NCBI GenBank assembly: GCA_001783215.1
Contig: MFRA01000005.1
Span: 29,845-93,844 of the forward strand
Length of the DNA stretch: 64,000 nt
DNA from: Candidatus Magasanikbacteria bacterium RIFOXYD1_FULL_40_23
Lineage (GTDB): Bacteria; Patescibacteriota; Patescibacteriia; Magasanikbacterales; GWA2-37-8
Direction: 5' to 3'
Under the pieces are notes generated by a model. That model ran no database searches. It worked only from the letters and a program-made list of their open reading frames with translations, and was not told the DNA's origin. The translations under genes and the position numbers were made by a program. This document shows positions 1,170 through 41,441 of the stretch, in pieces (positions within the stretch are counted from its first letter, which is position 1; each line of letters opens with the position of its first letter).

Positions 1170-3152
1170 ATGTCCGTCTTTCTCTACGCCATATTGCCAG
1201 CAGTTTTGGCAATAGTTTATGGGGTAATTTTAATTGCCTGGATAAACAAACAACCAGCCGGAGATGATCGCATGAAGGCAATTGCCAAAGCTATCCAAGA
1301 AGGAGCAAACGCTTATCTTGGCAGACAATATAGAACTATCGCGGTAGTGGCTCTAGCAGTTTTTGTCCTTATGGGTTTTGGAGTTAACTGGTTAACTGCT
1401 ATTGGTTTCTTGGTGGGCGCAGTGCTTTCCGGATTAGCCGGTATTATTGGTATGAACGTATCTGTAAGAGCCAATATCAAAACTGCAGAAGCTGCCAAAA
1501 AAGGCATGGTAGAGGCACTAAACGTAGCTGTGCGCGGCGGGTCCATCACCGGTCTTATGGTAGTTGGTCTTGGCCTACTAGGCGTAGCTGGTTTTTATTT
1601 AATTACAAAAGATTTATCTGCTTTGGTTGGTTTGGCATTTGGCGGAAGTTTGATTTCTGTATTTGCTAGAATCGGTGGCGGTATATTTACCAAAGCAGCC
1701 GATGTGGGTGCCGATCTTGTTGGTAAAGTAGAAAAAGGTATTCCAGAAGATGATCCACGCAACCCAGCTGTTATTGCCGATAATGTTGGTGACAACGTAG
1801 GAGACTGCGCTGGTATGGCTGCCGACTTATTTGAAACTTACGCTGTAACTGCTATCGCTACTATGGTGCTTAGCGGCTTACTATTTGTAGGCAATGAAAA
1901 AGCTGTTATTTATCCTCTAGTTTTGGGTGGGGTGTCTATCCTTGCTTCTATTGCCGGTACATTCTTTATTCGCTTGGGCAAAAAACAAAACATCATGCAA
2001 GCTTTATACAAAGGCTTGGCTGCATCTGGCTTGCTTGCACTAGTAGCTTTTTATCCTGTCACCAAATGGCTTATGAGCGACTTGGCTGGATACGATGTAA
2101 ACAAAATTTATGCTTCTTCTGTGGTTGGTTTAGTACTTGCTGCTATTATGGTTTGGATTACTGAATACTACACTTCTACCGAATACGCTCCGGTAAAACA
2201 AATTGCCAAAGCAAGTGAAACTGGTCACGGCACAAACGTAATTGCCGGTTTAGCCGTTTCTATGAAATCTACTGCTTGGCCAGTATTATTTATCGTAGCT
2301 GCCATTCTTTCTACATACTGGCTTGCTGGTTTATACGGCGTAGCAGTAGCTGCAATGAGTATGCTTTCTCTAGCAGGTATAATTGTTACAATTGATGCTT
2401 ACGGCCCTATTACAGACAATGCTGGCGGTATTGCAGAGATGAGCGAACTCCCAGAACACGTAAGAGAAATCACAGATAAATTAGATGCTGTAGGAAATAC
2501 TACAAAGGCTGTTACCAAAGGCTACGCAATTGCTAGTGCAGCTTTGGCATCTCTGGTTCTGTTTGCCGATTACACACACAAACTTCCAGAAAGCGTACAG
2601 TTCTTAATCAACGATCCAAAAGTTTTGGCCGGATTATTTATCGGTGGTTTACTGCCATACTTATTCGGTTCTATGCTTATGGAATCCGTTGGTAAAGTAG
2701 CTAGCCAAGTAGTAGAAGAAGTTCGCAGACAGTTCCGAGAAATTCCAGGAATTATGGAACGTACAAACAAGCCAGACTACGGCAAAGCTGTAGATATTGT
2801 TACTAAAGGCGCGATCAATCAAATGGTTCTTCCAGCTGTAATTCCAGTTCTTGCTCCAGTATTAGTTGGCTGGTTGTTGGGCGTAGAAGCTTTGGGTGGA
2901 TTATTACTTGGTACAATTATTACTGGATTATTCGTAGCAATCTCTATGACTACTGGTGGTGGTGCTTGGGACAACGCCAAAAAATATATTGAAAAAGGAA
3001 ACTACGGTGGCAAAGGATCTTTTGCTCATCAAGCAGCTGTAACTGGCGACACCGTTGGTGATCCATACAAAGATACTGCCGGCCCTGCTATCAACCCAAT
3101 GATTAAAGTTGCAAACATTGTTGCGTTGCTGATTGTTGGATTATTGATCTAA
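1170..3152 (+). CDS. hppA: membrane-bound H+(or Na+)-translocating pyrophosphatase
   Basis: 660 aa, polytopic. Carries the H+-PPase signature [20 protein letters not shown] and the DNVGDNVGD motif. Confidence 0.92.
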
Positions 3153-3168
3153 AACAAACTTAAACATA

Positions 3169-3196
3169 TTGACAAAACTATTAAATAATATAGTAT
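3169..3196 (+). promoter_or_regulatory. promoter-like TTGACA / 16-nt spacer / TAGTAT upstream of the GC-rich ORF at 3229
   Basis: TTGACA at 3169-3174, TAGTAT at 3191-3196. Confidence 0.35.
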
Positions 3197-3228
3197 TATT
3201 TTATCTAACCCAAGGTTAGGAGGATACT

Positions 3229-3627
3229 GTGCAAATTCTGCAACTCACCGAGTCCATGCTGACCCCGTTCGTTGGCGGACAACTTGAAATCATGGATCAT
3301 AAGAACTTTTGTGCATACTGCGGCGAAATAGAAAGTGTTAGGATTATAAGGGACTTTCTCGTCGTGAAATTCGCCTGGTGCGCAAGCAACGACGACAATG
3401 GCAACCAACAAGGGTTAGGCACAAACTGGACGTCAATCAATAAACTCACCTACAGCTGGATGCTTCCGGAAGGAATCATCTCTAAAGAGTACGGTGGAAG
3501 AATTACGGTAGGCTTCGGAATGCGTCTCGTCGAGCTTCTCATCTTCCTTCCAAAGGAGTGTGGGCCAAGCTACGAGGAATATAGACTTAATCGCAGCCAA
3601 GTCAAAGGGCTAGATGCCGTTCCATAG
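3229..3627 (+). CDS. hypothetical protein in a GC-rich islet; GTG start with a strong SD (AGGAGGA)
   Basis: AGGAGGATACT GTG. GC content is clearly higher than the flanks. A hairpin (GTGCGACC..GGTCGCAC) follows at 3646-3672. Confidence 0.45.
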   Translation: MQILQLTESMLTPFVGGQLEIMDHKNFCAYCGEIESVRIIRDFLVVKFAWCASNDDNGNQQGLGTNWTSINKLTYSWMLPEGIISKEYGGRITVGFGMRLVELLIFLPKECGPSYEEYRLNRSQVKGLDAVP

Positions 3628-3815
3628 GCTACAATTCAAGGCCAGTGCGACCAGTAGAGGGGGTCGCACACAACAACGACCATTCGTACCTCTACTTTAG
3701 ATCCTAAATAATTTGGGGCTTAAAGTAGTGCGAGTGGTTTTTTGTTTACAAAAGTCTCAATCCTATTTGACCTTCAAATTATTTTACAGTAAACTGCATG
3801 ATCAGGAGGAATACG

Positions 3816-6834: not shown

Positions 6835-6922
6835 CCGGAATCCCCCATGTTGTTATCTGCGAATTTGCAGATAGTAGATTATACACTCCAAAACGGCTTT
6901 TTGTCAATCGTATGATATAATT

Positions 6923-6951
6923 TTGACTATAGGATTTTTAAATACTATAAT
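6923..6951 (+). promoter_or_regulatory. near-consensus sigma70 promoter for nfo (TTGACT / 17 nt / TATAAT)
   Basis: TTGACT at 6923-6928, 17-nt spacer, TATAAT at 6946-6951. Confidence 0.55.
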
Positions 6952-6971
6952 GACACTACTAAATAAACTAT

Positions 6972-7808
6972 ATGCTTTTTGGCGCACATGTATCCATTGC
7001 TGGCGGATTATTCAACGCCCCTATAAACGCGGCTGCTATTGGCTGTGAAGTATTCCAAATGTTTTCTCGTTCCCCTCGCGGTGGTTGGGTAGCTCCACTA
7101 GACAAAAACATTGCCAAACAATTTAAAGAAAACTGCGAAAAGCATAACCAAAAAGAATGGTATATTCATGCGCCGTATTTTATAAACTTTGCTTCTACCA
7201 ATCCACGCATCAAACATGGCTCTGTGGCTGTATTACGAGAAGAACTAGAGCGTGGCACAATGCTGGGCGCAAAATACATAATGACTCATTTGGGCAGCTA
7301 CAAAGATGTGGGCCAAAAAGAAGGTTATAAACAATTAATAGAGGGTTTAGAAAAAGTAATGAAGGGATATAAGGGCACAACCCAATTTCTAATAGAAATC
7401 TCTGCTGGTGCCGGTAATATCCTTGGGGACACATTTGAAGAGGTAGGCGCTGCCTTACATCACAAAAAAATAGAAAAATATAATATCGGTGTCTGCTACG
7501 ATACCCAACATGCATTTGCTAGCGGCTACGATTGCCGCACGCCCAAAGCATTTGATGAAACTCTAAAAAAATTTGATAAAGAAATTGGCCTGGATAGATT
7601 AAAAATGTTTCATTGCAATGATTCCAAACCAGAACTTGGATCTCACCGAGATCGTCACGAACATATCGGCAAGGGCCAAATAGGATTGGCTGGATTTAAA
7701 ACAATCTTAGGTGATAAAAGATTAAAAGATAAAAACTTTATAGCAGAAACCGAAGATGACGAAATCGTACAAGACTTAAAACTACTAAAAAAGATTAGGG
7801 ATAAATAA
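6972..7808 (+). CDS. nfo: endonuclease IV (AP endonuclease family 2)
   Basis: MLFGAHVSIAGGLFNAPINAAAIGCEVFQMFSRSPRGGW is the Nfo N-terminal signature. 278 aa. Confidence 0.88.
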   Translation: MLFGAHVSIAGGLFNAPINAAAIGCEVFQMFSRSPRGGWVAPLDKNIAKQFKENCEKHNQKEWYIHAPYFINFASTNPRIKHGSVAVLREELERGTMLGAKYIMTHLGSYKDVGQKEGYKQLIEGLEKVMKGYKGTTQFLIEISAGAGNILGDTFEEVGAALHHKKIEKYNIGVCYDTQHAFASGYDCRTPKAFDETLKKFDKEIGLDRLKMFHCNDSKPELGSHRDRHEHIGKGQIGLAGFKTILGDKRLKDKNFIAETEDDEIVQDLKLLKKIRDK

Positions 7809-7847
7809 ACGGTCGTAAAAAATATTTATATTAAATAATAATAAATT

Positions 7848-8285
7848 ATGGATGAAAACATGTTAAACACAGCCCCATCTACAAGCAAAACAAAACTAAT
7901 CGTTGGCGTTCTAGTTTTATTAGTTGTTTTGGGTGGTGCTGCTTTTGTCTGGTACTCAAAAACTAAACCAGAAAATAAAATCCCCGTACCAACCACAAAT
8001 AATAGCGGTGCAACTGAGCCAAACATAACCCAACCAAGTTCCGAAGAAAATAATGGCGCCTCTCCTAACCCAGCCGTTCCCGCCACACCAGACACCTCTG
8101 ATACAGACCACTCCAATCCACCTAGCACTACTACGCCTCCATCAACTTCTACTTCTACAATCCCAAGACAAGATACAGGAGTAGATACTTTTGACCCAGG
8201 AAACTTACCACCTACTACCTCTACACCTCCAAGACCACCTGGCACACAAACAAATCCAGACAGCAGCACGGTACTTTCTCAATAA
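7848..8285 (+). CDS. Pro/Thr/Ser-rich low-complexity protein with an N-terminal TM anchor
   Basis: TM helix LIVGVLVLLVVLGGAAFVW followed by a PT-rich tail. The antisense ORF 7826-8269 is judged artefactual. Confidence 0.4.
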   Translation: MDENMLNTAPSTSKTKLIVGVLVLLVVLGGAAFVWYSKTKPENKIPVPTTNNSGATEPNITQPSSEENNGASPNPAVPATPDTSDTDHSNPPSTTTPPSTSTSTIPRQDTGVDTFDPGNLPPTTSTPPRPPGTQTNPDSSTVLSQ

Positions 8286-8300
8286 TTAATAACGAAAAAC

Positions 8301-8330
8301 AAAAATACACCGCTTAATAGGTGTATTTTT
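8301..8330. terminator. bidirectional hairpin terminator
   Basis: AAAAATACACC GCTTAATA GGTGTATTTTT. Confidence 0.5.
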
Positions 8331-8333
8331 GTT

Positions 8334-8603
8334 TTAAGGGTTATCTATTCCACCCTTACTCCACGGATTACAGCGCAATATTCGCCAGGCCGCTAGTGCA
8401 ACACCCACCACTAAACCTCGTTTTCTTATTATTTCATATCCATACTCACTACAGGTGGGCGTAAACCTGCAATAGCCATAGGGGAATTGAGATTTAAACA
8501 GCCCATGATCTGGAGAAATTGTTTTTTGGTATATTTTTATCAAAAATAAGAGCGGCGTTCTTGGCAAGAATAAGAGAAAATCAAGGATTTTTTTTATTTT
8601 CAT
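8334..8603 (-). CDS. yidD: membrane protein insertion efficiency factor YidD
   Basis: [39 protein letters not shown]...[14 protein letters not shown]. The start may be 6 codons upstream at 8621. Confidence 0.8.
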
Positions 8604-8690
8604 ACAAAGTGAAGGAAACAAAAATTTATTTTTATTTCTGAGCGTGTATAGAAAATACCTTTAGTATTTTCATATTAAGCAAACTTTGGA

Positions 8691-8724
8691 TGTCATCCCG
8701 AGCGAGCCGTAGCGACGAGGGATC
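8691..8724. repeat. GTCATCC...GGATC palindromic repeat unit (family R, single unit) at the 3' end of rnpA
   Basis: TGTCATCCCGAGCGAGCCGTAGCGACGAGGGATC; ATCCC/GGGAT stem. Confidence 0.6.
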
Positions 8725-8742
8725 TACAATATAAAATAAATG

Positions 8743-9138
8743 TTATGCTTTCAAAACCTTCGCCTTACTTAATAAAACTTTTACTTCTTGGCTAATGGCT
8801 GCATAATCTTTGTTCAAAACATCCTTTTTGGCTACCACAAGTATATAGTAGCCGTTTTTTATAACCCCATCTTTGAGTAGAAGCCTTATTACCTCTCTTA
8901 TCTGCCTTCGCACCCTATTTCGCTTTACTGCACTTTTATGCACCTTTAACCCTGTAGAAATGGCTAGCTTTAGCTGATTTTGGAAATTAATTGGATCTTC
9001 TTTTTCTGGGAAGAACTTTGTATTTTTGGCTAATTCTAGTACTTTTATATCCAAAAACTGGCCATTTGCCCAATAGCCATGCTTTAGTACCAAGTTAAAA
9101 TCTCTAAGTTTTCGTAAACGATTGTCTTGTTGGAGCAT
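8743..9138 (-). CDS. rnpA: ribonuclease P protein component
   Basis: 131 aa, basic. The motif VHKSAVKRNRVRRQIRE is typical of RnpA. Synteny is rpmH-rnpA-yidD. Confidence 0.85.
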   Translation of the reverse strand: MLQQDNRLRKLRDFNLVLKHGYWANGQFLDIKVLELAKNTKFFPEKEDPINFQNQLKLAISTGLKVHKSAVKRNRVRRQIREVIRLLLKDGVIKNGYYILVVAKKDVLNKDYAAISQEVKVLLSKAKVLKA

Positions 9139-29039: not shown

Positions 29040-29127
29040 GGAAGGGTGGCCGAGCGGTTTAAGGCAACAGTCTTGAAAACTGTCGTATCGAAAGGTACCG
29101 TGGGTTCGAATCCCACCCCTTCCGCCA
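29040..29127 (+). tRNA. tRNA-Ser (anticodon UGA), class II with long variable arm; CCA encoded
   Basis: GGAAGGGTGGCCGAGCGGTTTAAGGCAACAGTCTTGAAAACTGTC...GGTTCGAATCCCACCCCTTCCGCCA. The anticodon loop CTTGAAA gives UGA. Confidence 0.85.
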
Positions 29128-29300
29128 AATGTAGAGGGATGAGAAGTTTATTTTCAAGTTGAGCGAGAGGAAAGAAAATTTATCTTCTTTCCCGAGCGAA
29201 TGAAGAAAATACCTTAGTATTCCCCATAGCGGGGCGACGGGGCAAATTCCACCCCTTTTCTCTAGCGGTGTTAATAGCAAAAAGCTAACCCGATAACTTT

Positions 29301-35066: not shown

Positions 35067-35558
35067 TCACTTATAAATAGATTGAAAGAAATCAAAGAGC
35101 TCTTTTTGTTTATGTAGTGGAAGCGCGGAGAGTGGCTTGTTGCTCTTTGGTGAATTTCCTCCCCATGGTTTGCCAGAAATCATAAGCGATGTGCTTGGGC
35201 CGTTTAGCGGACGCACATAGTGCGCTCCATTTGGCTCCGTCATTTCATATTCCGACCCAGCCACGAGAATTATGCGCGCCGCTATAGGCATATCAGAGGT
35301 CTCCGAGCCGTATCCGATACCCATCTCGTAGCTGCCATCCAAAACCTTCATTGCCGAAGGCCAGGGGTGGGTGTGAAACAGAGCTTCTTCTGGTTCGCAT
35401 GGGTGAATGCGGTGGAGGTAAATACGATTCCCTTGCCACTCGCACCACAGGCGCTCCACGAAGGGGTGGTGGTAATCAATAAATACATTTTTCCACCTCG
35501 CTTCATCGCGAAGCAGGGCAGGAAGAACAAGTTCGGCTTGGTGTAGAAGGTTGAGCAT
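35067..35558 (-). CDS. hypothetical protein (His-rich HTHPW motif); moderately GC-rich
   Basis: Start trimmed to MLNLLHQ. Its AAGGAAAAAA SD overlaps the upstream stop. Confidence 0.35.
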   Translation of the reverse strand: MLNLLHQAELVLPALLRDEARWKNVFIDYHHPFVERLWCEWQGNRIYLHRIHPCEPEEALFHTHPWPSAMKVLDGSYEMGIGYGSETSDMPIAARIILVAGSEYEMTEPNGAHYVRPLNGPSTSLMISGKPWGGNSPKSNKPLSALPLHKQKELFDFFQSIYK

Positions 35559-35559
35559 G

Positions 35560-35811
35560 TTATTTTTTCCTTTGACCAATAATAGACAAGATAATTGATG
35601 CAGCGAAGTTATCCATCTCGCCAAAATCTTGGCCTGTTTCTGACTCTCTATCTAAGTCACATTCCACATTTTTAGAACCACAGAATTTGCAAGTAGTTTC
35701 TTCTTTGCGCATTTCTTGAAGCTGTTCGGGAGTCTTGCCCAAACCAGTCTTGTAGCCAACCCAATTACGAGCCCGGCCACAGCTATTACATTTCATCTTG
35801 TAGGCTTCCAT
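35560..35811 (-). CDS. small zinc-ribbon protein (CxxC...CxxC)
   Basis: MKCNSCGRARNW ... CKFCGSKNVEC. Confidence 0.4.
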   Translation of the reverse strand: MEAYKMKCNSCGRARNWVGYKTGLGKTPEQLQEMRKEETTCKFCGSKNVECDLDRESETGQDFGEMDNFAASIILSIIGQRKK

Positions 35812-36694: not shown

Positions 36695-36747
36695 GGGGCT
36701 TTGGTAATAGACAAAACGATTAGTTTTAGTTAGAATTGATTTTCAAT

Positions 36748-36832
36748 GGAGAGGTGTCTGAGTGGTTGAAAGTACCGCTCTCGAAAAGCGGTAGGCCGCA
36801 AGGCCTCGTGGGTTCAAATCCCACCCTCTCCG
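36748..36832 (+). tRNA. tRNA-Ser (anticodon CGA), class II; CCA not encoded
   Basis: GGAGAGGTGTCTGAGTGGTTGAAAGTACCGCTCTCGAAAAGCGG...GGTTCAAATCCCACCCTCTCCG. The anticodon loop CTCGAAA gives CGA. Confidence 0.8.
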
Positions 36833-37163
36833 CAGCGTAATGAAATGAAGCGAGGAAGAGGAGAGACCAAACTGCTTTGGTCGCGAGTGGGGTTTGAACG
36901 CCGGAGCGATGTTTGGCGACGCAGGCGAGCGAGCTAAACCGCGAGGCGGCCCGCCCGGATGAATCCGTTCGGACGGGTGGCTAGACAAAATTTTCGGAAG
37001 AAAATTTTAGTCGAAGCAAAATCCCACCCCCCCCCGCTTTTTAATAGTATTTTATAGGTTTATATAGTAAACTTATAAAATATCTTTAATCTTTATAGGT
37101 TTTATACTAAAAGTTATAAATTAACCTTGACTTTTATAGGTTTTTGTGGTATAATATTTTCAT

Positions 37164-37889
37164 ATGAATGAAATAAAATTACGAATAGGCGAAGCTGCAA
37201 AGATACTGGGAGTATCGGAGCAAACCATGCGAAACTGGGAAAAATCTGGCAAACTTCGTGCCGAGCGAAGTAGAGGGAATCAGCGCTTTTATTTATTAAA
37301 AGACCTCAAAATTTTTTCCCTTGATTTAAAAGTATTGGCTTTAGCATGGGCTACAAGTGCTTTACCACCAGAACTTCCTAGCGAATATTACTGTGAGCGA
37401 CCAGATCGTTTTACAAGTCGAGTGGCCAGGATGGGTGCCGAACTTCAGAAGGCTGGAGGAGTGTCAGAAGATTTAGCATCTCTTCTAACCCTTGTTGCTG
37501 GGGAAATTGGTGATAATTCTTTTGCTCACAATGTTGGTAATTGGCCGGATCTTGCGGGTGTGTTTTATGGATACAACATAGATAAGCGAATTATAGTAAT
37601 TGCAGACCGAGGACGTGGTGTGAAAACAACACTTCAGCAAGTCAGACCCAATCTTGCAACGGATATAGAAGCTCTTAATGTAGCTTTTACAGAAATTGTT
37701 TCTGGAAGAAATCCGGAAAAGCGTGGCAACGGACTCAAAGTGGTTCGTAAAGTGACAGAGTCAAAAGAAATCGGTCTTTTATTCCGTTCGGGTATCGGGC
37801 TCGTTACCATACCCATTCATCCCGGACCGATGCGAATAACGATGACTGATGGAAATGTTCGCGGAACATATGCTGTTATACAATTTTAA
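37164..37889 (+). CDS. fusion of a MerR/Xis-type HTH with a GHKL (HATPase_c, RsbW-like anti-sigma kinase) domain
   Basis: HTH: MNEIKLRIGEAAKILGVSEQTMRNWEKSGKL. ATPase N-box-like GEIGDNSFAHN and G-box-like IADRGRGV. Confidence 0.5.
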   Translation: MNEIKLRIGEAAKILGVSEQTMRNWEKSGKLRAERSRGNQRFYLLKDLKIFSLDLKVLALAWATSALPPELPSEYYCERPDRFTSRVARMGAELQKAGGVSEDLASLLTLVAGEIGDNSFAHNVGNWPDLAGVFYGYNIDKRIIVIADRGRGVKTTLQQVRPNLATDIEALNVAFTEIVSGRNPEKRGNGLKVVRKVTESKEIGLLFRSGIGLVTIPIHPGPMRITMTDGNVRGTYAVIQF

Positions 37890-37900
37890 ACATATTAAAT

Positions 37901-38215
37901 ATGCAAACCATCCAACTTAAAAAATTTGGCAACGTACTTGTTTCTCGACCAGCAGGCCTGGAAGCTTTTAATGCTATTCGCCCACAACTTAATCCTGATA
38001 CACCTATTGAAATTGATTTTGACCAAGTATTAACTGTAACGCCTTCATGGCTTGATGAATTTTTAACACAACTTACAGATTATAATGGAGGAAAGGTGGA
38101 GTTGCTTCCTACTAAAAACGCGTCCGTACTTGCGGCACTGCCAGTATTGGCAGAGGCACGTAAAGATTTTGTTGCCGCTACTGTTTTGCGAGCTCTTAAG
38201 CAAATGCAAGGTTAA
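37901..38215 (+). CDS. STAS-like (DUF4325-type anti-sigma-antagonist-like) small protein
   Basis: 104 aa. IEIDFDQVLTVTPSWLDEFLTQL resembles the STAS core. Immediately follows the GHKL gene. Confidence 0.4.
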   Translation: MQTIQLKKFGNVLVSRPAGLEAFNAIRPQLNPDTPIEIDFDQVLTVTPSWLDEFLTQLTDYNGGKVELLPTKNASVLAALPVLAEARKDFVAATVLRALKQMQG

Positions 38216-38306
38216 AATTATATATTAAGTGTTTTTATTTGAACACTTTGCTTTAATATATCTAATATTATAAACAAATATTTAAGAATATTTAACTTAA
38301 CAAATC

Positions 38307-38678
38307 ATGGAAGAGATTGATGTAATTTATAATAGGTATGGAACGCCAATGTTAAGGTTGCTAGAAGATGGCAGGCTTGTTTCGTTCACGGGCAAAAGTA
38401 TTGGATTTATAAAAGAAAGTAATTTGTTTAATTACTCAGGGGAATATTGTGGATGGTTTGAAAATGGAATAATGAGAGATCAAAATGGACATTGTGTTGG
38501 GTTTGGGGAAAACGCAAGTGATTTCCCAGCACCATTTTTTCCCTTTAAGCAGTTTAAACCCTTTCCGGGATTTGTAGAATTTGAACCATTCCGTCCTTTT
38601 ACAGGATTTATTCCTTTTAAGCCATTAAAAACTTTTTCTTGGTCAGAAAAAGACCCGATAAGTTTATTTTTTAAATAA
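38307..38678 (+). CDS. hypothetical protein with C-terminal Pro/Phe repeats
   Basis: PFFPFKQFKPFPGFVEFEPFRPFTGFIPFKPLKTF. Confidence 0.35.
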   Translation: MEEIDVIYNRYGTPMLRLLEDGRLVSFTGKSIGFIKESNLFNYSGEYCGWFENGIMRDQNGHCVGFGENASDFPAPFFPFKQFKPFPGFVEFEPFRPFTGFIPFKPLKTFSWSEKDPISLFFK

Positions 38679-38679
38679 T

Positions 38680-39036
38680 ATGTCGGGGAATAATAATGGA
38701 AAAAATAAGAATGATTTAACACCAAGGGAGCAAAAGACCACGGCTGCTTTTAAGATGCTTTCAGGTCAAAATGATACGCTTAAAAAATCACTAAAAAAAA
38801 CACAGGATGAGCTGGAGAAGATGCGTGCTGAAAAATTTCAGCACGAAAAAAGAAATGCAGTTTTAGAAAATAAACAAAAAACTTTAATTTGGATCGAAAT
38901 TTTTAAATTTTTGTCGAGTGCCGGAGTTGGTTTTGCCATCAATTATTATTTTATAGGAAATGTCAGCTATGCCCTTGTTGTCGGAATACCGTCACTTCTC
39001 CTTTTTATTGTAGTTGAATTTTTATCAAATAAATAG
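38680..39036 (+). CDS. hypothetical coiled-coil protein with a C-terminal TM helix
   Basis: N-terminal KKSLKKTQDELEKMRAEKFQHEKRNAVLENKQK. C-terminal hydrophobic segment. Confidence 0.35.
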   Translation: MSGNNNGKNKNDLTPREQKTTAAFKMLSGQNDTLKKSLKKTQDELEKMRAEKFQHEKRNAVLENKQKTLIWIEIFKFLSSAGVGFAINYYFIGNVSYALVVGIPSLLLFIVVEFLSNK

Positions 39037-39067
39037 TAACGAGGCCGTGCTAAAGCCTCGTATAGAC

Positions 39068-39877
39068 CTACTCATTCACCAGCCGCTTTGAGCGCTCTGC
39101 CAGCGCCAGAAGTTCGGCATTGGTATATTTCTTCCGCACGATTGGTTGCCAGTCGTGTCCGGCAAACGTCGGGTCGTACGGATTTACCGACCTAACCCAG
39201 CCAAGGTGTGGCAAAACTTCCATCGGGTCGTTTGGGTTTACACGCGTGTAGTGGATTACTTGGCAATTGCCGATTTTGAACCATTTCTGGTTTTCGCTTT
39301 CCACCGTATGGTAGGTATCTGCGGTCATGTGCTCCAAGATAATGCGAAAGGCCTGCATCAGGCCGCCGTGCGAGACAATAATCACCTGCTTGTCTGCCAT
39401 CTCGCGATGTAGTGTGCTGAGAATATTGGTGCGAAGTCGATCGCAAATCTCTGGAATGGATTCTCCATCGGGCCAAGGCGCGTAGAGTAGATGCTGTTGG
39501 CGCAGCCGCATATACCTTTGGAACTGTTCTTTCCGCGTACTGTTGGCAAGCATATCCACTTGGCCATGATCGCGTTCGCGAAGCTGGAAGTCCATATTCC
39601 AATCTGCATCTGGCAGATCCAGCAGTGCAGCCGTTTCTACGGCTCGTGTATATTCCGACACGTAGTAGCCGTCAAATCGGTCTAGTCCTTGGCTTTTTAG
39701 CCAGTCGCCAGCCATTTTGGCCTGCACTTTGCCTTTGTCAGTGAGTCGCAGTTTAGTGCTGTGCCTGTTTAGAAATTCTGGCGTGAAGTCGGAGTTGTCT
39801 CCTTTGCGCGAACGCCTGTTGGCAATGTTACCTTCGGATTCGCCGTGGCGAACAATTACAAGATTGAGGGGGAGCAT
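39068..39877 (-). CDS. histidine phosphatase (phosphoglycerate-mutase-like) family protein; GC-rich, likely horizontally acquired
   Basis: N-terminal RHG motif VIVRHGESEGN. Local GC is clearly higher than the host. Confidence 0.6.
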   Translation of the reverse strand: MLPLNLVIVRHGESEGNIANRRSRKGDNSDFTPEFLNRHSTKLRLTDKGKVQAKMAGDWLKSQGLDRFDGYYVSEYTRAVETAALLDLPDADWNMDFQLRERDHGQVDMLANSTRKEQFQRYMRLRQQHLLYAPWPDGESIPEICDRLRTNILSTLHREMADKQVIIVSHGGLMQAFRIILEHMTADTYHTVESENQKWFKIGNCQVIHYTRVNPNDPMEVLPHLGWVRSVNPYDPTFAGHDWQPIVRKKYTNAELLALAERSKRLVNE

Positions 39878-40038
39878 TTTGTTTTTCCTTGGTTTGGGTT
39901 GGTTGTTAATGAACTGTCTGAAAGTAATATAACAAGGAAATAAAAATTATGTATCAAAATAGATACTAAAGTGTATCTATGCATTTTTAATCTGGGCTAT
40001 TGACCCTTTGTTTAAAGAGGTTTATACTATAAATATAA

Positions 40039-40782
40039 GTGTATCTTTTTATATACAGTGTGAAAGAATTACTAATAAAACTCGGTCTATCTACAATAGA
40101 AAGTGCTCTATACGAAGCTTTGGTAACAAAAGGGTCTTTGTCTGTTTCGGCGCTTGCCGAAGCTAGTGGTTTGTATCGCCCACAGGTATATAAATACCTT
40201 CCAGGTTTAATAGACAAAGGTTTGGTTACAGAAACTCGACACGGAAGCAGAGTGGTATATATGGCTGAGTCGCCACGACATCTGGAAAAATTAATAGATA
40301 ACTTGAAAAGCGAAGTTTGCGGACAGATGCCACAACTGCTCAAACTATATTCCAATACAGAGAGCCGTCCGACTGTTAGTTATTTTGAAGGTGAAAAGGG
40401 AATTCGTCATATCTACAAAGATTTGGTAGCCACATGCAAAAAAGGCGATATTTTTTATCGATACGAATCACCACGCAACTACCATGCAGTCCGTAAATAT
40501 TTACCTCAAGAATACTATGATCGTTTTCGAGATAGCGCCGAGGTAGAACGCCTGATAATTACCAACGAAGTGACCAAGCAACAGAAAAAAGAACGTCTTG
40601 GCCGTATTATCAAGGTGGTTCCACCAAAGTACGATTTGTTTGACTATGATATTTCCCAATTAATTTATGGAGACAAAGTAGCGTTTATAGATTTTCGTTC
40701 CGAAACTGCCAGCCTAATAGAGAGTCCGCTATTTGCCCAGTTCCAGCGAAAAATATTTAAACTTTTGTTTGATAAACTGTAA
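40039..40782 (+). CDS. TrmB-family transcriptional regulator
   Basis: wHTH LGLSTIESALYEALVTKGSLSVSALAEASGLYRPQVYKYLPGLIDKGLV. The start may be an internal GTG. Confidence 0.55.
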   Translation: MYLFIYSVKELLIKLGLSTIESALYEALVTKGSLSVSALAEASGLYRPQVYKYLPGLIDKGLVTETRHGSRVVYMAESPRHLEKLIDNLKSEVCGQMPQLLKLYSNTESRPTVSYFEGEKGIRHIYKDLVATCKKGDIFYRYESPRNYHAVRKYLPQEYYDRFRDSAEVERLIITNEVTKQQKKERLGRIIKVVPPKYDLFDYDISQLIYGDKVAFIDFRSETASLIESPLFAQFQRKIFKLLFDKL

Positions 40783-40787
40783 AATGT

Positions 40788-41441
40788 ATGGAAGAAAATA
40801 TTCTAATCTCAAAAATAGTTGCCGAAGTGAAATTAAAAATGGAAGGCGAAGGCTCCGGCCATGACTGGTGGCATGTATATCGTGTTTGGCAAATGGCCAA
40901 GCGAATTGGCGAGCAAGAAAAAGCAAATTTACTCATTGTAGAATTAGGCGCGCTTTTGCATGATATTGCTGATTGGAAATTTCATGATGGTGACGATACG
41001 GTTGGTCCGCGCGTGGCCGAAGAGATTTTGGCAAAGAATGAAGCATCCCAAGAAATAATTGAAGCAGTAAGTAAGATTATCTCAGAAGTAAGTTTTAAAG
41101 GTGTGGGTGTAAAAACAGAGCCATCTACACTTGAAGGTAAAGCTGTGCAAGACGCTGATAGAATTGATGCTCTTGGTGCAATTGGTATTGCGCGAGCATT
41201 TGCATATGGCGGACATAAAAATAGAGTAATGTATGATCCGAATATAAAACCAGTTATACATACAACTAAAGAGGAGTATATAAAAAGCGAAGGTACAACA
41301 GTCAATCATTTTTATGAAAAACTGCTCTTATTAAAAGATTTATTAAATACCGAGACAGCAAAGGAGATTGCCCAAAGCCGCCATAAATTTATGGCAGAGT
41401 ATTTAGATAGATTCTATAAAGAATGGGAAGGTACTATGTAG
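40788..41441 (+). CDS. HD-domain phosphohydrolase
   Basis: HDWWHVYRV ... LLHDIAD. Confidence 0.7.
   Translation: MEENILISKIVAEVKLKMEGEGSGHDWWHVYRVWQMAKRIGEQEKANLLIVELGALLHDIADWKFHDGDDTVGPRVAEEILAKNEASQEIIEAVSKIISEVSFKGVGVKTEPSTLEGKAVQDADRIDALGAIGIARAFAYGGHKNRVMYDPNIKPVIHTTKEEYIKSEGTTVNHFYEKLLLLKDLLNTETAKEIAQSRHKFMAEYLDRFYKEWEGTM

Follow-up and report, generated by a model that had tools for sequence, protein, structure and literature searches.

In the partner-switching systems RsbW–RsbV and SpoIIAB–SpoIIAA, a small GHKL protein with N, G1 and G2 boxes is encoded beside an alpha/beta partner of about 100 residues, in which an invariant serine lies at the start of a helix. The same design is seen in two adjacent genes, here called P1 and P2, found 3′ of a tRNA-Ser(CGA) gene of Candidatus Magasanikbacteria bacterium RIFOXYD1_FULL_40_23, a member of the candidate phyla radiation (CPR, or Patescibacteria). 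We analysed a 64,000-nucleotide (nt) stretch of contig MFRA01000005.1 (the window); the locus is also present in GCA_001783315.1 and several groundwater assemblies. P1 joins a helix-turn-helix (HTH) domain to a GHKL domain, and P2 is a DUF4325 protein. The genomes of CPR bacteria are very small and encode few regulators that can be recognised, and the majority of their conserved proteins without a known function have yet to be explored. In the literature we found no description of a GHKL and DUF4325 pair, nor of partner switching in Patescibacteria.

Several features distinguish P1–P2 from the RsbW–RsbV and SpoIIAB–SpoIIAA pairs. The kinase-like protein is encoded first and its partner second, neither a sigma factor nor a PP2C phosphatase is linked to them, P1 of this clade has an HTH of its own and finds its nearest folds among Hsp90/GyrB-type ATPases, and P2, as a DUF4325 protein, has no detectable similarity to solved STAS structures. 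The N-terminal 50–60 residues of P1 match MerR, HTH_17 and excisionase models, a likeness to MerR-family regulators and to HTH domains of the excisionase and IS607-TnpA type, and dyad repeats at the promoter are a further likeness. Unlike MerR proteins, P1 ends in a GHKL domain rather than a coiled-coil dimerisation helix or effector-binding domain, its promoter spacer is 17 nt and not 19–20, and an operator half-site abuts the −35 instead of lying centrally in an over-long spacer. Unlike TnpA of IS607-type elements, it has no recombinase domain. Type II toxin-antitoxin (TA) and other two-gene conflict modules, including PIN.4–DUF4325, resemble P1–P2 in having two genes, apparent autoregulation, horizontal movement, variable contexts and a DUF4325 partner; P1–P2 differs in lacking a known toxin domain, in carrying the DNA-binding domain on the larger, enzyme-like protein, and in its unusually high conservation.

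Our best explanation is that the locus is a variable hot spot 3′ of tRNA-Ser(CGA), with a self-contained, autoregulated, CPR-specific and horizontally spreading P1–P2 cassette as its core, and we are evenly divided between accepting and doubting it. The GHKL–DUF4325 cassette itself is an uncharacterised, CPR-wide, probably autoregulated variant of the partner-switching or two-gene-module theme. The first-pass annotation of this DNA, made from the sequence alone, had proposed a small regulatory or defence-like island; its observations are largely confirmed, and its interpretation is partly supported.

A tightly linked GHKL–DUF4325 pair

Relatives of P1 were found in 286 of 185,579 species in a scan of one genome per GTDB species, a pattern scan that reaches close relatives only, so that this count does not give the true frequency. 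Eighty loci from other CPR species were fetched, and the window makes 81. A P2 homologue adjoins P1 downstream in 78 of the 80, with a gap of 5–66 nt, and the remaining two are cut at a contig end. The GHKL and DUF4325 genes are thus a real, tightly linked unit. P1 is 47–85% identical across the fetched loci, and in alignments of relatives the mean column identity is 75–77%.

The family is considerably wider than these loci. With HMMER, a complete search of 1.84 billion proteins, representatives at the 50% identity level, gave 3724 matches to P1 at E ≤ 1e-3. Many members are about 190 residues long and have no HTH, and in others its place is taken by a winged HTH or a cytidylyltransferase-like domain. 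All three HTH-less relatives that were looked up have a DUF4325 gene immediately downstream, and the winged-HTH versions are likewise paired with DUF4325. The conserved core is therefore GHKL plus DUF4325, with an interchangeable DNA-binding head, and the replacement of the MerR-type HTH by a winged HTH in relatives argues for DNA binding as an accessory domain with a regulatory or output role. The source names are all CPR (Peregrinibacteria/Peribacteraceae, Torokbacteria, Gottesmanbacteria and ‘Patescibacteria group’), and the whole GHKL and DUF4325 family looks CPR-restricted.

P1 is, as had been proposed, an HTH–GHKL fusion. Its HTH scores 43.5 bits against the Pfam MerR model PF00376 (cut-off 28.2) and 35 bits against HTH_17; the best PDB sequence matches are CueR and GlnR, and excisionase models match too. 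In the GHKL domain, the N, G1 and G2 boxes (E114/N118, D148xGxG152 and G188xG190) are invariant in alignments of 38 related sequences. The AlphaFold model (mean predicted local distance difference test, pLDDT, 85.7) matches the ATPase domains of Hsp90/TRAP1, GyrB and topoisomerase II with a Foldseek probability of about 1.0. P1 is predicted from sequence and model to be a DNA-binding GHKL ATPase or kinase-like protein.

P2 scores 22.6 bits against DUF4325 (PF14213), just under the cut-off of 23, and 19 of 22 close relatives match the family, which is also the UniProt name of the protein. Ser49, within the motif T-x-[TS]-P-S-W-x-D-E-F, is invariant in 72 of 72 sequences and is modelled (pLDDT 89.6) at the N-terminus of a helix that comes after a strand. 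We take this to be the same kind of position as that of the phosphorylated serine of SpoIIAA and RsbV. Ser49 is therefore a candidate phospho-acceptor, although the resemblance serves as a lead only.

Promoter and predicted operators

The AT-rich, promoter-like DNA noted upstream of P1 does contain a near-consensus promoter, in a segment (37041–37163) with a GC content of 0.17. This promoter is the best match of the region, at 11 of 12 consensus positions, with a −35 of TTGACT at 37127–37132, a 17-nt spacer and an extended −10 (TG-TATAAT, the −10 at 37150–37155). Since the ATG of P1 lies 8 nt past the −10, the P1–P2 transcript is probably leaderless. Half-sites TTATAGGTTT occur at 37052, 37093 and 37134 and inverted copies at 37069–37078 and 37111–37120, making two dyads and one half-site that abuts the −35. 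Within the window, exact TTATAGGTTT is found only at the P1 promoter, and one-mismatch matches elsewhere are near chance.

The repeats differ between two clades of the cassette. The clade-A motif is TTATAGGTTT/AAACYTATAA, with 3.8 half-sites per 210 nt of upstream DNA against 0.38 in background DNA, and TTGACTTTTATAGGTTT is present in 48 of 51 clade-A loci with the same layout. The clade-B motif is a set of three TGCATAGWTTT repeats, and at least three such direct repeats, about 21–22 nt apart, are found in 21 of 26 loci. This joint change of repeats and protein clade is as expected if P1 binds its own promoter. The cassette is probably autoregulated, the repeats being its predicted operators. 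Both clades occur together in one metagenome-assembled genome (MAG), CAYHXC01 (L048 and L086), each with its own operator type, which suggests that the two cassettes have orthogonal specificities.

A proposed mechanism

From these features we infer a minimal partner-switching circuit whose output would be DNA binding instead of sigma-factor sequestration. P1 would dimerise and, by means of its MerR-type HTH, occupy the repeated TTATAGGTTT/AAACYTATAA sites beside and within its own strong promoter, thereby repressing the leaderless P1–P2 transcript. The GHKL domain would bind ATP and engage P2 as RsbW and SpoIIAB engage RsbV and SpoIIAA, and P1 may phosphorylate the invariant Ser49 of P2. The state of the P1–P2 complex would then determine the strength with which P1 binds the operator. 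In none of the loci inspected is a sigma factor gene linked to the pair; an HTH is fused to P1 instead.

A number of results weigh against such a circuit. Members of the family that lack the HTH are unable to bind DNA, which means that this is not what the family has as its core activity. Across the 81 loci no third gene is conserved beside P1–P2, neither a PP2C nor any other phosphatase. The Pfam model HATPase_c_2 scores P1 at 17.2 bits, under its cut-off of 27.4; the GHKL assignment stands despite this score because of the invariant N, G1 and G2 boxes and the AlphaFold and Foldseek matches. The nearest of these structural matches are, however, ATPases (Hsp90, GyrB) and not protein kinases. 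For P2, none of three comparisons detected similarity to solved STAS proteins: Foldseek of the model gave a BCH domain as its best match (E 0.02), and nothing came from profile searching of PDB sequences or from hhalign against a SpoIIAA sequence. In the description of P2 as a STAS-like, DUF4325-type protein, the family assignment holds, and ‘STAS-like’ therefore rests on the name that Pfam gives to PF14213.

Because a predicted operator, an ATP site and a candidate phospho-acceptor serine are all specified, the cassette is amenable to simple biochemistry. Its 3724 representatives, its very high conservation, the exchange of DNA-binding heads and the joint change of operators and protein make it a tangible starting point for the study of regulation or conflict in CPR bacteria.

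Spread and genomic context of the cassette

The arrangement of the window, with P3, P4, P5 (the next three genes) or the flanking genes, recurs in none of the 80 other loci. When all neighbouring open reading frames (ORFs) were clustered, the commonest neighbour family of P1–P2 was found in only 8 of the 81 loci, and there are no shared neighbours even among loci whose P1 proteins are about 80% identical. The annotated surroundings are diverse, from housekeeping genes in some loci to defence-like and mobile ones in others. The similarity of P1 and P2 does not follow taxonomy either: the cassette spans CPR classes, and the P2 of the window is 90% identical to that of an Adlerbacteria genome and 80% identical to that of another Magasanikbacteria genome. 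This mismatch with taxonomy, the two clades found in the same lineages and in one MAG, and the variable contexts together point to horizontal spread of the P1–P2 cassette.

A phage origin of the cassette was considered and rejected: IMG/VR holds no relatives of P1, and the INPHARED phage records gave only HTH-level matches, to IS607-type transposases.

Two further observations concern individual loci. Locus L080 contains a direct repeat of at least 1.9 kb (1849–3746 and 6846–8743), 99.4% identical and 4997 nt apart, each copy with a full P1–P2; either segmental duplication or an artefact of assembly could account for it. On the Adlerbacteria contig L014, a LOOT RNA (Rfam RF03000, 70 bits) lies at 1548–1677, about 4.3 kb upstream of P1–P2.

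Alternative explanations for the cassette

The main rival to the partner-switching circuit is that P1–P2 is a TA-like or abortive-infection/defence module, in which the GHKL protein is an ATP-dependent effector or sensor, the DUF4325 protein its neutralising partner and the HTH a means of tight autoregulation. This is a live possibility, although a somewhat unlikely one. It would account well for a compact, autoregulated two-gene unit in variable contexts, and for two orthogonal operator types in one genome. Defence-type or mobile genes are at times close by: the cassette of L090 neighbours DUF4238, SLFN-AlbA_2/HATPase_c_4, DUF2726 and nSTAND3 genes, that of L108 HepT/MNT and HigB-like genes, and that of L106 an rve integrase gene. 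DUF4325 genes have also been described as transcriptionally coupled to a VapC-like PIN group (PMC5499597), and a Francisella prophage carries a 293-residue protein and a DUF4325 protein as a pair between its repressor and integrase (PMC7924643). Residues 93–215 of P1 match phrog_3364. On the other hand, neither protein has a recognisable toxic effector domain, the proteins are very highly conserved by the standards of conflict systems (identity between P2 proteins of different CPR classes reaches 90%), and the cassette is absent from IMG/VR contigs and phage records. The catalogue check that had been proposed for a defence-like function gave no support: PADLOC-DB 2.0 contains no defence system that matches, the only match being the generic mad1 model, a 60-residue HTH, on the HTH of P1, with none for P2–P5.

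It is improbable that P1–P2 is instead an ordinary, vertically inherited housekeeping regulator of CPR bacteria, whose apparent mobility reflects nothing but poor synteny. The column identity given above would suit such a regulator, as would the wide distribution of the cassette across CPR classes and the presence of a tRNA-Ser just upstream of P1 in four other loci (L016, L017, L034 and L037). A vertically inherited gene is harder to reconcile with similarity that does not follow taxonomy, with a MAG that holds two paralogous types, with the duplicated 1.9 kb of L080 that includes the cassette, with the lack of shared neighbours even at a P1 identity of about 80%, or with an occurrence in 286 of 185,579 species, by a scan that reaches close relatives only.

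Finally, a three-part partner-switching system of GHKL kinase, STAS protein and PGAM-type histidine phosphatase on one tRNA-Ser-integrated island, as first proposed, is very improbable and largely refuted: although all three genes lie within 2.7 kb in the window, the RHG and SHG motifs of the phosphatase are intact, and P1 is directly preceded by a His_Phos_1 gene or fragment in L020 and L028 (the L028 contig being the same as L093), the phosphatase is missing beside the pair in at least 77 of the 80 other loci, three adjacencies in 81 loci are about what chance would give for a common enzyme family, the gene in the window is convergent, with two unrelated genes and a terminator lying between it and the pair, its GC content is 0.52 against 0.42 for P1, and there is neither an integrase nor an attachment-site (att) repeat at the distal end. 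Since a His_Phos_1 gene adjoins the pair in only those two of the other loci, against 78 of 80 with P1 beside P2, the phosphatase is not part of a conserved trio.

A structured element 3′ of tRNA-Ser

Between the tRNA gene and the operators lies a GC-rich stretch (GC 0.555 at 36840–37030 against 0.40 for the whole window) that ends in a run of nine C residues, both as the first-pass annotation had described. At its 3′ end is a direct repeat of the tRNA-Ser 3′ end, covering 16 nt of the T-arm and acceptor region; 14 of the 16 are identical and 11 are an exact run, and this exact 11-mer occurs at only those two places in the window. The repeat doubles as the 3′ strand of a long-range helix. The 207 nt between the repeats fold much better than shuffled sequences do (z = −4.6).

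The element is homologous to a segment 3′ of a tRNA-Ser(TGA) gene in an unrelated contig, L119, with 13 compensatory pairs. Both copies have as their first part a copy of the 5′ acceptor strand of the local tRNA (GGAGAGA in the window, GGATGGG in L119), followed by a hairpin with a CUGC loop and then a long-range helix enclosing 100–125 nt of inner hairpins, one of them in the window with a GGAA loop. The strands of the long-range helix correspond to the T-stem and half of the T-loop of the local tRNA (GTGGG...CCCAC in the window, GTGAG...CTCAC in L119). With covariance models, further copies were found after another tRNA-Ser in L119 (a second copy there), about 190 nt 5′ of P1 in L085 (where no tRNA is near and the copy has a terminator-like end of hairpin and T tract), about 160 nt downstream of P2 in L014 (away from any tRNA), and directly upstream of the HD-domain gene, the one that flanks this locus in the window, in L118 and L120; matches in L114, L047 and L030 are weaker. 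These homologues came to light after HD-gene loci had been fetched and the covariance model built, blastn against the first 86 loci having returned only identical copies from the same population.

In all, the element is about 190 nt long, on the plus strand, with seven covarying helices. For 44 pairs scored in the six copies that lie outside the window, 94.4% of cells are standard and 33 of the 44 pairs show compensatory changes, against 35–51% standard pairs and at most 12 compensatory pairs in a slid-partner control; the alignment was fitted to the model, so that the pair counts lean towards structure, but the margin is large. A search of the window element against Rfam 15 gave only the tRNA and chance-level matches at E up to 10, and nothing overlapped the L119, L085, L118 and L014 copies at E up to 0.1. 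The element pattern was not found in IMG/VR. On this sequence evidence it is a candidate structured RNA or folded recombination site, associated with tRNA-Ser 3′ ends and the boundaries of variable regions. As such it adds a candidate structured RNA family absent from Rfam, and these associations bear on how CPR bacteria acquire genes without obvious integrases.

A minus-strand pseudo-tRNA had been suggested for this stretch. The strings on which it was based, GTTCAAACC and CCACTCGCGACCA, are present on that strand, but ARAGORN and the Rfam tRNA model give nothing there, and the pseudo-tRNA is rejected.

A more far-reaching proposal is unlikely, and we offer it as speculation: the element of about 190 nt would represent a novel type of CPR structured RNA or folded-DNA recombination site, with ends that mimic the acceptor and T-arm strands of the adjacent tRNA-Ser, and it would mark or even mediate the insertion of cassettes such as P1–P2 3′ of tRNA genes. 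P1–P2 would then be a CPR-wide system of signalling or conflict, so far unrecognised, that ties a GHKL enzyme directly to DNA binding.

The element also has to be compared with tRNA-targeted integrative elements, which it resembles in that the 3′ end of the tRNA, from the T-loop on, is directly repeated downstream of the intact gene. It differs in being a unit of only about 190 nt that encodes nothing, has a covarying structure, occurs also away from tRNAs and has no integrase nearby. It could nevertheless be a mere attR scar, without function of its own, of a decayed element that had integrated at the tRNA-Ser T-loop. A repeat that begins inside the T-loop and extends to the tRNA 3′ end, as here, is typical of T-loop-targeting integrases. 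Similar repeats lie 150–185 nt past tRNA-Ser or tRNA-Trp genes in L109, L119, L121 and L016, as well as near the other tRNA-Ser of the window, and in L109 the sequence past the repeat corresponds to what in L112 comes immediately after the tRNA, a signature of insertion at the tRNA 3′ end. A dead scar, however, would not keep its structure, and here seven helices are maintained by compensatory changes in copies from different organisms. The copies in L085 and L014, away from any tRNA, and the hairpin and T tract that end the former, do not fit such an origin either, and we regard it as quite improbable.

The tRNA 3′ end repeats of the other contigs are exact over 10–19 nt, three of them at tRNA-Ser and one at tRNA-Trp (inserts in Table 1). 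In the window, about 120 nt downstream of tRNA-Ser(TGA) (29040–29127), there is a partial copy of its 3′ end at 29244–29254, AAATTCCACCCCTT (from 29244) versus GAATCCCACCCCTT in the tRNA, with a repeat offset of about 136 nt. The inserts of L109, L016 and L121 and that of the window tRNA-Ser(TGA) are not detected by the covariance model of the element and are of a different kind, or of several kinds.

The interval between tRNA-Ser and the HD-domain gene

Loci related by their HD-domain gene were compared for the interval between tRNA-Ser and this gene; the HD genes are 66–75% identical and the upstream flanks differ, so that these genomes are too distant to define an insertion event. The tRNA-Ser lies about 100 nt upstream of the HD gene without cargo in L110 and L112. 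In L118 and L120 the element is directly upstream of it, again without cargo, and in L109 a tRNA-Ser(CGA) is followed by an insert of 170 nt, one small gene and then the HD gene. Against these three arrangements, in the window the element and the HD gene are 3.75 kb apart, and the cargo in between is composed of the P1–P2 cassette, the P3–P4 pair, the GC-rich phosphatase gene and a TrmB regulator gene. On this comparison of sequences, the interval from tRNA-Ser(CGA) to the HD gene is a variable hot spot with unrelated, mixed cargo.

The proposal of a small island integrated at tRNA-Ser is borne out only in part. The interval does vary in relatives, and the cargo is absent at the corresponding place in L110, L112, L118 and L120, distant as these relatives are. 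The cargo is composite, however; the annotated neighbourhood of the locus shows no integrase, and the second copy of the tRNA-Ser 3′ end expected near 39900–40040 is missing, the repeat in the element being the only one. We do not consider the five genes P1–P5 to be one island, because they differ in GC content (0.33 to 0.52), lack an integrase and a distal att repeat, and have separate phyletic patterns. No strain of the same species free of the islet was found; all contigs with the exact flanking proteins carry the same locus.

A conserved motif, GGGATTCGAAC, which is the reverse complement of tRNA T-arm sequence, was seen immediately 5′ of, or overlapping, the start of two genes, the HD gene of L112 (motif at 7960–8005) and a gene for a 119-residue protein in L109 (motif at 7388–7420). 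It may be another tRNA-derived fragment at the hot spot.

Neighbouring genes and local features

The features of the locus are collected in Table 1. Starting from tRNA-Ser(CGA), which ARAGORN and Rfam both place where the first-pass annotation had it, the order is the GC-rich stretch, the AT-rich segment, P1–P4 on the plus strand and a hairpin terminator-like site, followed by the convergent histidine phosphatase gene P5, the TrmB-type regulator gene and the HD-domain gene.

Table 1. Positions of the features discussed, in window coordinates unless another contig is named.
Feature	Position	Strand	Basis
Promoter-like site of tRNA-Ser(CGA), TAGACA-17-TAGAAT	36708–36736		promoter scan
tRNA-Ser(CGA)	36748–36833	+	ARAGORN; Rfam tRNA, 56 bits
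GC-rich structured element, candidate non-coding RNA or recombination site	36850–37042	+	fold, covariance, homology
GGAGAGA, equal to tRNA acceptor 5′ strand	36860–36866	+	5′ motif of element
Hairpin 1 of element, CUGC loop	36865–36882	+	element
Long-range helix of element	36887–36895 with 37019–37027	+	
Direct repeat of tRNA-Ser 3′ end, AAATCCCACCCcCcCC versus AAATCCCACCCTCTCC (36816–36831)	37019–37034	+	repeat search
C9 run, then T tract, at element end	37027–37035	+	
Operator-promoter of P1–P2	37043–37163	+	repeat search, promoter scan
P1, MerR/excisionase-type HTH (residues 1–64), linker, GHKL (Bergerat-fold) ATPase/kinase-like domain (about 75–241)	37164–37889	+	
P2, 104-residue DUF4325 protein (Pfam name ‘STAS-like’)	37901–38215	+	Pfam, conservation in 72 sequences, model
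P3, 4-fold beta-flower protein	38307–38678	+	Pfam PF21784
P4, small protein, coiled-coil-like N-terminus and hydrophobic C-terminal half	38680–39036	+	ORF list; weak coiled-coil Pfam matches
Hairpin terminator-like site between convergent P4 and P5	39039–39061	.	
P5, branch-1 histidine phosphatase (His_Phos_1)	39068–39877	−	Pfam, 92.2 bits
TrmB-type regulator, right flank	40039–40782	+	Pfam
HD-domain protein, right flank	40788–41441	+	Pfam
tRNA-repeat insert, L109	7132–7319		
tRNA-repeat insert, L121	5455–5640		
tRNA-repeat insert, L016	5671–5860		
tRNA-repeat insert, L119	7555–7739		

P3, P4 and P5 are neighbours of P1–P2 in this locus only. P3 had been listed as an unknown protein with PF repeats. 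The repeats are there, as F/P-rich hairpin tips, but the family is not unknown: residues 6–116 of 123, tips included, match the 4-fold beta-flower family PF21784 with 88.7 bits (cut-off 25). The fold was described from AlphaFold models with no function assigned (Durairaj et al. 2023, PMC10584680), and nothing sets P3, a full-length match, apart from other members. P4 starts 2 nt past the P3 stop, and its C-terminal half probably forms two membrane helices, as judged from its sequence. P5 is the convergent, GC-rich PGAM-family phosphatase that had been recognised; it also matches phrog_12933 with 83 bits, and its RHG and second-His motifs, RHGESEGN and VSHGG, can be read intact in the translation.

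Two low-coverage metagenome contigs, L095 (1–1153) and L096 (1–352), are identical to the window up to 39369 and 39546, respectively, inside the phosphatase gene, and unrelated to it from there on. They are probably chimeric assemblies, or may reflect real strain variation. The TrmB-type gene has a GTG start 11 nt past a promoter-like site, TTGACC-17-TATACT (40000–40041). It would be leaderless like P1, so leaderless transcripts may be common in this genome. On the other side of the tRNA, a minus-strand ORF for 185 residues (35067–35624) has a raised GC content of 0.48, with local 300-nt windows up to 0.54. It has no Pfam match and a weak PHROG match to a cysteine-dioxygenase-like (cupin) family, and like the phosphatase gene it looks compositionally foreign.

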